Positions 15,687 to 16,881 of a stretch of 64,000 bases of DNA are shown here, one piece after another. The position numbers were made by a program, and so were the translations under genes. Origin of the DNA: Candidatus Kaiserbacteria bacterium RIFCSPHIGHO2_01_FULL_53_29 (lineage in GTDB: Bacteria; Patescibacteriota; Minisyncoccia; Phycocordibacterales; UBA2100). The notes under the pieces are model-generated. The model searched no databases, was not told the DNA's origin, and saw only the letters and a list, made by a program, of their open reading frames with translations. The stretch lies in assembly GCA_001781125.1 (NCBI GenBank), contig MFKT01000001.1, positions 3,630 to 67,629 of the forward strand, read 5' to 3'. Positions within the stretch are counted from its first letter, which is position 1, and each line of letters starts with the position of its first letter.

Positions 15687-15956
15687 TCAGCTCCCGAAGA
15701 GTTGATGATGCGTGCCCACGGCGCGCAAATAGAATGTCTGTGCATCGAGCTTTTTGTATACCAGCCGCCAATCCCCGGTAATATTGATGCTGGAATAACC
15801 ATCGAACGGGTGATGCAACTTGTGGTCGTTGAGCAGAGGATTGCGTTCGTCAGTAATCAACAACTCGATGCGCTTCCACAGCTTGTCCTGCACCCCTAGC
15901 GATAGCTTTTTCGCCTGCCGTTCGAACTCCCGGTGTGTTGGAAATCGCATGGACAC
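15687..15956 (-). CDS. YafQ/RelE-family mRNA interferase toxin
   Basis: ...NDHKLHHPFDGYSSINITGDWRLVYKKLD...AVGTHHQLFG matches the YafQ core (DH.L.G...DW.LIYK...GTH..LF). Confidence 0.7.
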   Translation of the reverse strand: MSMRFPTHREFERQAKKLSLGVQDKLWKRIELLITDERNPLLNDHKLHHPFDGYSSINITGDWRLVYKKLDAQTFYLRAVGTHHQLFGS

Positions 15957-16228
15957 TATTTCTCAATCGCCGCCCTCAATTCCTCAAGACTATTGTAGGT
16001 TTTTATATTGCGTCCAGTTTTGAGATCTTTCTCGCCCTGTATGAGCAACCGCTTCAAATACGGCGTCGGTTCGTACTCTTGAGCAGAGAAGGTGATTTGT
16101 TCCCGATTAACGATCTCCTTCAGCATCTGATTCATTACAGCGGAAAAGGGGATACCCATTTTCTTCGCCATTTTTTGTGTAGCTTCTTTCAGTTTCTTGT
16201 CTGTCTTGAAAATGACTGTAGTTTGCAT
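15956..16228 (-). CDS. DinJ/RelB-family antitoxin
   Basis: MQTTVIFKTDKKLKEATQKMAKKMGIPFSAVMNQMLKEIV... fits a ribbon-helix-helix antitoxin. Its stop overlaps the toxin start by 1 nt. The listed longer ORF would need a TTG start. Confidence 0.6.
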   Translation of the reverse strand: MQTTVIFKTDKKLKEATQKMAKKMGIPFSAVMNQMLKEIVNREQITFSAQEYEPTPYLKRLLIQGEKDLKTGRNIKTYNSLEELRAAIEK

Positions 16229-16317
16229 ATACTGTAGTATATATTCTAGTATAAACCTGTCAAGCAAACAGGGAGGCGAGGCCTCCCTGTAAACTAAACC
16301 TGTATCAACAGGTTGTC

Positions 16318-16710
16318 GTGTCGAATCCCGATTGTTCCGGTATACTTTTAACTATGGATAACATCAAATACACCGTTAAGAACACAGTAAACGGAGAAAA
16401 AAGAAGCGAAAAGGAATACGAAATTCCTGACAAGGTGAGCGACGTCAAACGGTTGATTGCTGAGATCCAAAGGGACGATGCGCTAATACTGAGGGATGTG
16501 CCGCGCCAAGCACTCGAAGCGTCAGGACGGGATCATGAGAATAAAGTTTGGGGTCACCACGAGGAGAAAGTGACCAATCACGCAAGAAAAATAAATGATC
16601 TTTTTGATCGCTACACTGACCTTAAAAGTGCACCTGAAAAGTTGGACGATGACGGGAAGCAAGTTTTGACTGAACTTGAGAAAATGTTAATTAAAGAAGG
16701 GGTATTGTAA
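16318..16710 (+). CDS. Hypothetical protein in an AT-rich island
   Basis: A 130-aa ORF with charged, helical sequence and lower local GC than its surroundings. No family was recognised. Confidence 0.4.
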   Translation: MSNPDCSGILLTMDNIKYTVKNTVNGEKRSEKEYEIPDKVSDVKRLIAEIQRDDALILRDVPRQALEASGRDHENKVWGHHEEKVTNHARKINDLFDRYTDLKSAPEKLDDDGKQVLTELEKMLIKEGVL

Positions 16711-16714
16711 TTTG

Positions 16715-16743
16715 TTGACTTCGGCACCCATATCGCGTATATT
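16715..16743 (+). promoter_or_regulatory. Sigma70-like promoter TTGACT-N17-TATATT upstream of rpsN
   Basis: Read directly from the sequence. It would restart transcription of the distal operon half after the TA/AT-rich insertion. Confidence 0.45.
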
Positions 16744-16881
16744 TGCCGAGCCTCGTAGGGGGCCTTATTTTTTGACCACAGGTTGGAAGAAGAACAAGGC
16801 CACGCGAAGAAGCTTCTGTAAGTCGGCTGCGCAAGCGCCGGATGCAAGGGTTTCTAAGTCTCCTTAGGGGTTTTCACTACA

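Follow-up and report, generated by a model that had tools for sequence, protein, structure and literature searches.

A predicted YafQ-type toxin-antitoxin module at the rplE/rpsN junction, a clade-wide cargo slot in the ribosomal gene cluster of a Candidatus Kaiserbacteria genome

The analysed DNA, a stretch of 64,000 nt called the window below, comes from a Candidatus Kaiserbacteria genome and includes its S10-spc ribosomal gene cluster. No gene arrangement is more conserved among bacteria than the S10-spc-alpha cluster. In the window, the genes are ordered rplC-rplD-rplW-rplB, mazE-mazF, rpsS to rplX and rplE, which is the final gene of the upstream ribosomal transcription unit, and rpsN heads the downstream unit rpsN-rpsH-rplF-rplR-rpsE-rplO-secY-gmk-adk. 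The interval between rplE and rpsN, which is the subject here, contains a toxin gene and an antitoxin gene on the minus strand, a divergent intergenic region bearing hairpins, an open reading frame (ORF) named orf118, a promoter and an untranslated stretch of 132 nt. The features of this interval and of its two flanking genes were assigned as follows.

15147-15686, plus strand: rplE, encoding L5 (Pfam Ribosomal_L5 and L5_C), with the TAA stop codon at 15684-15686.
15687-15950, minus strand: YafQ-type toxin with predicted RelE fold, 87 aa, ATG at 15950 and TGA at 15689-15687.
15956-16228, minus strand: RelB/DinJ-type ribbon-helix-helix antitoxin, 90 aa, ATG at 16228 and TAG at 15958-15956.
16228-16263, minus strand: predicted promoter and operator of the toxin-antitoxin (TA) module, with the -35 box TTGACA at 16263-16258 and the -10 box TATACT at 16241-16236.
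16269-16289, divergent intergenic region: hairpin rich in guanine plus cytosine (GC), CAGGGAGGC-GAG-GCCTCCCTG, read from the sequence.
16354-16710, plus strand: orf118, a lineage-restricted ORFan of 118 aa with a GC content of 0.429, no TA component.
16715-16743, plus strand: predicted promoter of the rpsN operon, TTGACT at 16715-16720, a 17-nt spacer and TATATT at 16738-16743.
16750-16881, plus strand: structured 5' leader of rpsN, about 135 nt, recognized by a covariance model, covariation and folding.
16882-17067, plus strand: rpsN, encoding S14 in its 61-aa zinc-ribbon form (Pfam Ribosomal_S14, 4e-23).

The TAA of rplE (15684-15686) touches the stop codon of the toxin gene (tca, 15687-15689), so that the spacer between them is 0. 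For comparison, rplE loci were fetched from 80 species representatives, and loci are labelled by L-numbers. An identical stretch is present in GCA_001781875.1, and a JGI contig (L095) matches at 100% identity; since these independent assemblies show the same arrangement, an assembly artefact was excluded.

The toxin ORF spans 15687-15956, and its start was placed at ATG 15950 because the homologues (about 150) are almost all 87 aa long. The protein passed the cut-offs of Pfam YafQ_toxin PF15738 (2.6e-10, 40.9 bits, cut-off 30) and of NCBIfam RelE_StbE TIGR02385 (33 bits, cut-off 27.9). An AlphaFold2 (AF2) model built on 40 homologues reached a predicted local distance difference test (pLDDT) value of 94.5, and its best match in a Foldseek search of the PDB was E. 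coli YafQ 4MMJ (template-modelling (TM) score 0.82, root-mean-square deviation 2.4), followed by V. cholerae DinJ-YafQ 9LEW and then by YoeB, RelE and HigB. The catalytic residues of E. coli YafQ are His50, His63, Asp67 and His87, plus Arg83 and Phe91. In the window toxin, H43, D60, R76, H81 and F85 align with H50, D67, R83, H87 and F91, respectively; across the aligned family, H43, D60 and H81 never vary, R76 is nearly invariant (at least 90%) and position 85 is F or Y. By profile and predicted fold, the protein is a type II toxin of the YafQ/RelE superfamily. The toxin gene differs from a homologue by 31 synonymous and 19 non-synonymous codons, the antitoxin gene differs from that of L088 by 37 and 19, respectively, and in the comparisons of the TA genes with two homologues the changes lie mostly at third positions. 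Judged from these codon differences, the toxin is under purifying selection.

The antitoxin gene lies directly upstream of the toxin gene on the same strand, 5 nt from the toxin ATG, and its product passed the cut-off of Pfam RelB PF04221 (1e-5, 25.8 bits, cut-off 22.4). The YafQ and RelB families were both matched significantly, above their Pfam cut-offs, and the DinJ/YafQ-type module that the initial annotation had placed on the opposite strand between rplE and rpsN was thereby confirmed. ATG 16228 was taken as the antitoxin start, not TTG 16267, because the promoter register is conserved in about 45 loci and a 90-aa gene is called in GCA_001781875.1. The predicted TA promoter agrees with the consensus at 11 of 12 positions. 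Its -10 box ends exactly 7 nt 5' of the antitoxin ATG, and a leaderless mRNA is predicted from this spacing. The hexamer TATACT occurs at 16253-16248 and at 16241-16236, with the inverted copy AGTATA at 16233-16228, and these repeats presumably form the operator. The arrangement TTGACA-N16/17-TATAYT-N7-ATG stands upstream of the antitoxin gene in about 45 distinct loci with an almost identical promoter and operator, and there an inverted repeat TATACY-N14-RGTATA covers the -10 box and the start site. The arms of this repeat co-vary, being ATACC...GGTAT in most loci and ATACT...AGTAT in the window. At the sequence level, a palindromic repeat over the promoter is what would be expected of an autorepression operator. 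On the minus strand the hairpin at 16269-16289 is followed by TTTGCTT and then by the TA -35 box; comparable hairpins stand just 5' of this box in L088, L096, L100, L103, L106 and L123. This hairpin may act as an insulator or terminator.

To survey the context of the module, the 15 successive junctions that separate the genes from rpsS to secY were measured in about 70 genomes of Paceibacteria. The rplE/rpsN junction is the sole one ever expanded, and the other 14 all measure at most 238 nt. Its gap has a median of 771 nt, is longer than 4 kb in some genomes, and exceeds 300 nt in 38 of 55 loci and 1 kb in 26 of 55; in 10 further loci rpsN is absent within 4 kb of rplE. In outgroups from outside the candidate phyla radiation (CPR), the gaps at the same junction are 6-85 nt. 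The premise of the initial annotation that normally no gap separates L5 from S14 thus does not hold for this clade. The cargo of the slot comprises 62 Pfam families in 126 ORFs. The commonest occupant is a co-oriented S-adenosylmethionine (SAM) methyltransferase (11 ORFs), next come TA toxins of four families (MazF 3, HigB/Gp49 2, HicA 2 and YafQ 2), and PaaX/Cas2-like, Fis-type helix-turn-helix, GNAT, Cas1 and more are found besides; the other TA families and the unrelated genes occur in either orientation. Variable cargo of atypical composition between conserved core flanks is the pattern by which islands and hotspots are recognized, and the slot shows it. In the window, the slot (15687-16714) contains the TA module and orf118 only. 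No flanking direct repeats were found around the window slot, no integrase is among the 25 most frequent slot cargo families, and the window's only tRNA and tmRNA lie more than 27 kb from the slot. The rplE/rpsN junction is a clade-wide break that is kept open for accessory genes.

The slot methyltransferase is a SAM-dependent enzyme (Methyltransf_25/11, 230-290 aa) encoded directly after rplE. It was found in the slot of L008, L011, L015, L020, L021, L023, L025, L026 and L027, and also in L045, L082-L084, L089 and L103-L105. It could be ribosome-related.

The sigma70-type promoter TTGACT-N17-TATATT that had been noted about 140 nt upstream of rpsN is present, and the transcription start of the rpsN unit is predicted near 16750. 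A scan with the bare consensus gave 12 sites against 9.3 +/- 3.1 expected in 14.5 kb, which is not above chance. The combination TTGACTT-N17-TATAKT, 6 nt and GCCUCG is kept in register in about 30 orthologous loci. In genomes whose slot is empty (L006, L022, L028, L032 and L075), the -35 box begins about 3 nt past the rplE stop codon, and 36-50 nt lie between this stop codon and the leader. Promoter and leader precede rpsN in every leader-bearing relative, empty slots included. Because the cargo sits between the rplE stop codon and a pre-existing promoter, the rpsN promoter is not a consequence of the TA module, and the proposal that it restarts an operon broken by the module was given up. From this distribution, promoter and leader are ancestral. 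More distant Paceibacteria have no such leader, yet a TTGACx promoter and a hairpin stand before rpsN.

Base composition differs among the genes of the slot. The GC content is 0.425 for relB and 0.429 for orf118 as compared with 0.534 for the window and 0.543 +/- 0.024 for its ORFs of at least 200 aa, which puts both genes about 5 standard deviations under the mean of the window genes, and 15951-16850 is among the lowest 1% of 900-nt segments by GC. The toxin gene is host-like in composition (GC 0.519, GC at third codon positions (GC3) 0.659). The AT-rich island described initially was accordingly retained for the antitoxin gene and orf118 and dropped for the toxin gene, and the low-GC hypothetical ORF described after the TA module was recovered as orf118. 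Between orf118 and a homologue of 84% identity there are 40 synonymous and 19 non-synonymous codon differences, with 12/9/54 differences over the three codon positions; orf118 was taken as a real protein-coding gene because of this synonymous excess and third-position bias. It matched no Pfam or NCBIfam family, its relatives are only 2 clusters among 5.8 billion proteins, and its single-sequence AF2 model has a pLDDT of 67.5. Other TA-bearing loci hold different genes at its position, and orf118 appears to be variable cargo of recent arrival. The only other strongly low-GC patch of the window (42800-43700, down to 0.42) lies beside the tmRNA gene (44039-44430) and may be another island.

The relatives of the TA module were then located. 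Six homologue clusters (64-77% identity) were looked up, and all six are in the rplE/rpsN slot on the opposite strand, their toxins abutting rplE or the methyltransferase after it. A metagenome scan found 24 of about 37 informative loci to be linked to rplE, with all toxins of at least 64% identity among them; 13 more distant toxins are not rplE-linked. The distance from the rplE stop codon to that of the toxin, taken over 19 distinct loci, is -4 to +5 nt in 11, 171 nt in one and 742-853 nt in the remaining 7, most of which have the methyltransferase in between. Loci with higher L5 identity also tend to have higher TA identity (Mantel r 0.52, 0 of 2000 permutations). This pattern suggests that the TA lineage was inherited in the slot largely vertically, convergent with rplE, over a long period. 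Because the presence of TA is patchy, many losses or recombinational exchange are required, and long residence plus frequent loss or exchange would describe its history.

According to the initial annotation, an spc operon that had been continuous was split by a recent and independent insertion of the TA, which brought the promoter along or led to its origin as a new start for rpsN transcription. The low GC of the antitoxin gene and orf118, the closest rplE relative being without TA, and a nearby second TA module with a similar promoter and hairpin downstream would all fit such an event, and the same gene order with uniform composition was not seen in all relatives, L002 being without TA. This insertion has nevertheless become very unlikely. 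Whatever the slot holds, and even where it holds nothing, about 30 relatives keep the promoter and leader in register, and these relatives are not the same strain, their L5 identity to the window being about 62-84%. The rplE/rpsN break is clade-wide, the toxin has a host-like GC3, and the TA homologues stand at the same exact position and co-diverge with L5. The model of an independent insertion is largely refuted by these data.

The preferred interpretation, to which a probability of about 0.8 was given, is that the ribosomal cluster is transcribed as two separate halves, with a clade-wide cargo slot between them that here holds an intact type II TA module. As known for this family, the RelB/DinJ-type antitoxin and the YafQ-type toxin would be transcribed together, starting at a near-consensus sigma70 promoter of their own. 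Either the antitoxin or the TA complex would repress this promoter through the hexamer repeats over the -10 box and the start site, and the free toxin would be predicted to act like YafQ, cutting mRNA at the ribosome. The cluster of Kaiserbacteria-type Paceibacteria is always broken at rplE/rpsN, rpsN carries its own promoter and leader, and very diverse accessory genes are inserted in the few nucleotides from the rplE stop codon to that promoter. That TA modules are enriched and persist in the slot would be explained most economically by addiction, because a TA module would resist loss when recombination between the conserved flanks swaps the cargo.

Several points weigh against this interpretation. 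The toxin stays under the cut-off of the NCBIfam YafQ model TIGR00053 (33.5 vs 87.25) and the antitoxin below that of RelB_DinJ TIGR02384 (40.2 vs 45.65), and N56 of the toxin stands where E. coli YafQ has His63. The pairwise identities of toxins and antitoxins correlate weakly (rho 0.15), TA is found in only 3-4 of about 62 species representatives, and the closest rplE relative, L002 (84% identity), has no TA. In L016, a GIY-YIG-like ORF (86 aa, 6076-6336) separates the leader from rpsN. The transcription starts, the leaderless mRNA and the binding of the operator are predictions from the DNA sequence, and the addiction or stabilisation role is likewise inferred. The shortfall against the two NCBIfam models and the Asn in place of His63 would also suit a decaying or inactive remnant, with an inactivated toxin and genes kept by chance. 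Such decay is most improbable: dozens of genomes carry both ORFs intact, N56 too is nearly invariant across the lineage, H43, D60 and H81 being invariant, substitutions are concentrated at third codon positions, and about 45 loci have an almost identical promoter and operator.

A functional coupling of the TA module to the ribosomal operon, in which it would be no passenger, was also considered. Read-through from the highly expressed rplE unit would run antisense through yafQ-relB into the TA promoter and silence the TA, by transcriptional interference or antisense pairing, as long as ribosomes are made at a high rate; when ribosomal-protein transcription drops, the TA would be expressed and the ribosome-dependent toxin would slow translation. 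Conversely, TA transcripts would be antisense to the rplE 3' end. The TA is always convergent, 11 of 19 lineages have a spacer of -4 to +5 nt, and the toxin abuts the methyltransferase instead of rplE wherever that gene follows rplE. At the rplE/toxin junction no intrinsic terminator was found in the window and no conserved hairpin among 11 loci folded, so that convergent transcripts should overlap; a bidirectional terminator or conserved hairpin across the junction was rejected on the same folding. The long-term co-inheritance with L5 and the action of such toxins on the ribosome, as known for the family, also favour coupling. However, other convergent pairs in the window are spaced by -7, 10 and 15 nt, so that abutment is not special, and the tight spacing was rejected as evidence for coupling. 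Most relatives manage without TA, other TA families and unrelated genes use the slot in either orientation, and about a third of the related toxins are located elsewhere. Coupling is a minority possibility and was regarded as unlikely, with addiction-type persistence in a recombination-prone slot favoured over it. It is quite unlikely, too, that the TA is a conserved partner of the ribosomal cluster that would act as a hard-wired growth-rate switch in a reduced genome, beside a separate control of the rpsN-to-secY half by the clade-specific leader RNA.

The leader in front of rpsN was divided into the following elements, all on the plus strand.

16750-16763: 5' hairpin, with a U-tract after it.
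16761-16773 with 16789-16801: P2, a long helix with a variable cap.
16808-16815 with 16848-16855: P3.
16819-16821 (UAA) and 16843-16845 (UGC): invariants of the internal loop.
16823-16841: P4, a GNRA-capped hairpin with the GCAA loop at 16831-16834.
16861-16864 (CUCC): closing pairing with GGGG near the 5' end.

When 23 leaders were used to build a covariance model, it gave exactly one match per locus, always just upstream of rpsN, in the window (128.5 bits, E 1e-32), in 30 species representatives and in 24 further loci. In the raw MAFFT alignment of leaders, compensatory changes were found in 23 of 34 pairs, the observed covariation score and paired fraction were matched by 0 of 500 shuffles, and slid controls were clearly lower. 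For 43 distinct leaders, 81.8% of the cells are paired (shuffled 74.1%, slid at most 61%), and 24 of 34 pairs carry compensatory changes (149 compensatory cells vs 57 when shuffled). P3 and P4 are less well aligned, with about 70% paired. The minimum free energy of the leader is -48.2 kcal/mol, and the individual folds agree on the architecture. Judged from position and covariation, the leader is probably a cis-regulator of the unit from rpsN to secY, and in the likeliest case its effector is a ribosomal protein.

Several identities and modes of action were tried for the leader. In Rfam 15 (4227 families) the leader had no match when the window was scanned at gathering scores, and a search of the stretch 16200-16950 left 16750-16881 unmatched even at E <= 10; SRP RNA (signal recognition particle RNA) or another known RNA was ruled out for want of an Rfam match. 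A small ORF over the leader (51 aa, TTG start, 16712-16867) was rejected, its start lying inside the -35 box and its frame being broken between relatives by P2-cap indels of lengths not divisible by three. Sequestration of a Shine-Dalgarno sequence was rejected because the mapped genes have none: no such sequence was found upstream of any of the 27 gene starts at 8134-22384, which belong to ribosomal and neighbouring genes. The regions upstream of these 27 genes are A/T-rich, with T at -1 nearly always. Simple occlusion of the start codon by the leader is disfavoured because the GIY-YIG gene intervenes in L016. Mimicry of the S8 site was retained as a weak lead only: UAAGUC...GAUGC of the window recalls UAAGUC...GAUAC of 16S helix 21, the resemblance is limited to three aligned leaders (window, L002 and L021), and the leader consensus UAAC...GGUGC is without the A640-U641-A642 element of the S8 site. 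L004, L008, L015 and L030 have short hairpin repeats (CCTCGACTAGCTCGAGGTAAAC-like) inserted between leader and rpsN.

Elsewhere in the cluster, a second TA module had been noted, and it was verified as MazE/MazF at 10928-11523, about 4.5 kb upstream (PemK 4e-22). This module lies between rplB and rpsS (window 10894-11610 region). The mazE promoter is TTGACA-16-TACAAT, and its -10 box ends 6 nt before the mazE ATG, so that a leaderless mRNA is expected in the same layout as for relB. After mazF, TTGACT-17-TACATT is followed by a hairpin and a U-tract (11597-11610) before rpsS, which is the same promoter-then-hairpin design as in front of rpsN. Few loci are informative for the rplB/rpsS junction: L091 has no gap, and L093/L094 hold an unrelated ORF on the opposite strand.

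Other repeats were also observed. A repeat of about 143 nt with the terminal inverted repeats TATGCCCGGCAGGACAATTTCGAAT ... ATTCGAAATTGTACTAGCCGGGTATG occurs at 9894-10036, 12019-12161 and 14697-14839, exactly filling the three ribosomal-operon gaps rplW/rplB, rpsS/rplV and rplN/rplX, respectively, and a fourth copy ends at 52868 (3' arm 52839-52868). The 3' end of this repeat provides the ATG of the next gene, it folds as a long hairpin (-47.3 kcal/mol, z = -4.5), and it looks like a miniature inverted-repeat transposable element (MITE) or an RNA-processing site. Directly 5' of rpsS, rpsC and rplP stand CCTAG-rich repeats whose period is 7 nt (ACCTAGTCCCTAGCACCTAG), at 11631-11665, 12567-12615 and 13334-13368, respectively. 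The motif GCATAGTTCGACGNNGCTCACTATAAA is common to the rplF/rplR (18311-18337) and rplO/secY (19776-19802) junctions. The guanylate-kinase gene (21088-21684) lies between secY and adk, likewise in L001 and L091.

In the literature searched, PMC8046335 and PMC12455944 included, no account of the rpsN leader was found, and nothing on TA modules in ribosomal operons of CPR bacteria; a description of the rplE/rpsN slot was not found in the literature searched either. The TA is an ordinary type II system whose novelty lies mainly in its unusual conserved context; what is newer here is the slot that the clade shares, together with the leader RNA. A junction that is open throughout a large CPR clade changes how such 'insertions' are read in genome annotation and genomic-island prediction. 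The rpsN promoter and leader together are a concrete candidate for ribosomal-protein autoregulation where the Shine-Dalgarno sequence appears to be absent. To our knowledge, no ribosomal-protein autoregulation of such kind is known in this group.

With E. coli DinJ-YafQ (PDB 4ML0, 4Q2U and 4MMJ) the window module shares the antitoxin-then-toxin order, the RelB/DinJ ribbon-helix-helix antitoxin, the YafQ/RelE toxin fold (TM 0.82), the equivalents of His50, Asp67, Arg83, His87 and Phe91 and a putative palindromic operator over the promoter. It differs in the identity of about 26%, in the toxin score below the NCBIfam YafQ cut-off, in the Asn for His63, in the predicted leaderless mRNA and in its fixed position inside the ribosomal cluster, convergent with rplE, throughout a lineage. 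The spc operon of E. coli is autoregulated by S8, with the operator at the rplE start inside one continuous operon. Common to both cases is a structured mRNA element near rplE, rpsN and rpsH, with rpsH (S8) as the second gene downstream of the leader. The invariant U.G, bulged A and A-U of the leader partly recall U594.G645, A595 and A596-U644 of 16S helix 21; by contrast, the window element is a 5' leader with its own promoter before rpsN, and A640-U641-A642 of the S8 site has no counterpart in it. Like the ribosomal-protein leaders of Rfam, the rpsN leader has a conserved position in the 5' untranslated region, a multi-helix structure backed by covariation and a single-clade distribution. 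Unlike them, it matches no Rfam 15 family and opens with a terminator-like hairpin and U-tract at the predicted transcription start, and sequestration is unlikely in it because the 27 mapped genes are without Shine-Dalgarno sequences.

Variable regions, for example integron cassette arrays or genomic islands, can be stabilised by TA modules. The slot resembles these regions in that YafQ, MazF, HigB and HicA are enriched in a hypervariable region with conserved core flanks. It differs from them in that no integrase, attachment site or tRNA is tied to the window slot, in that it lies inside the most conserved gene cluster of bacteria, and in that one of its TA lineages appears to have been inherited largely vertically.

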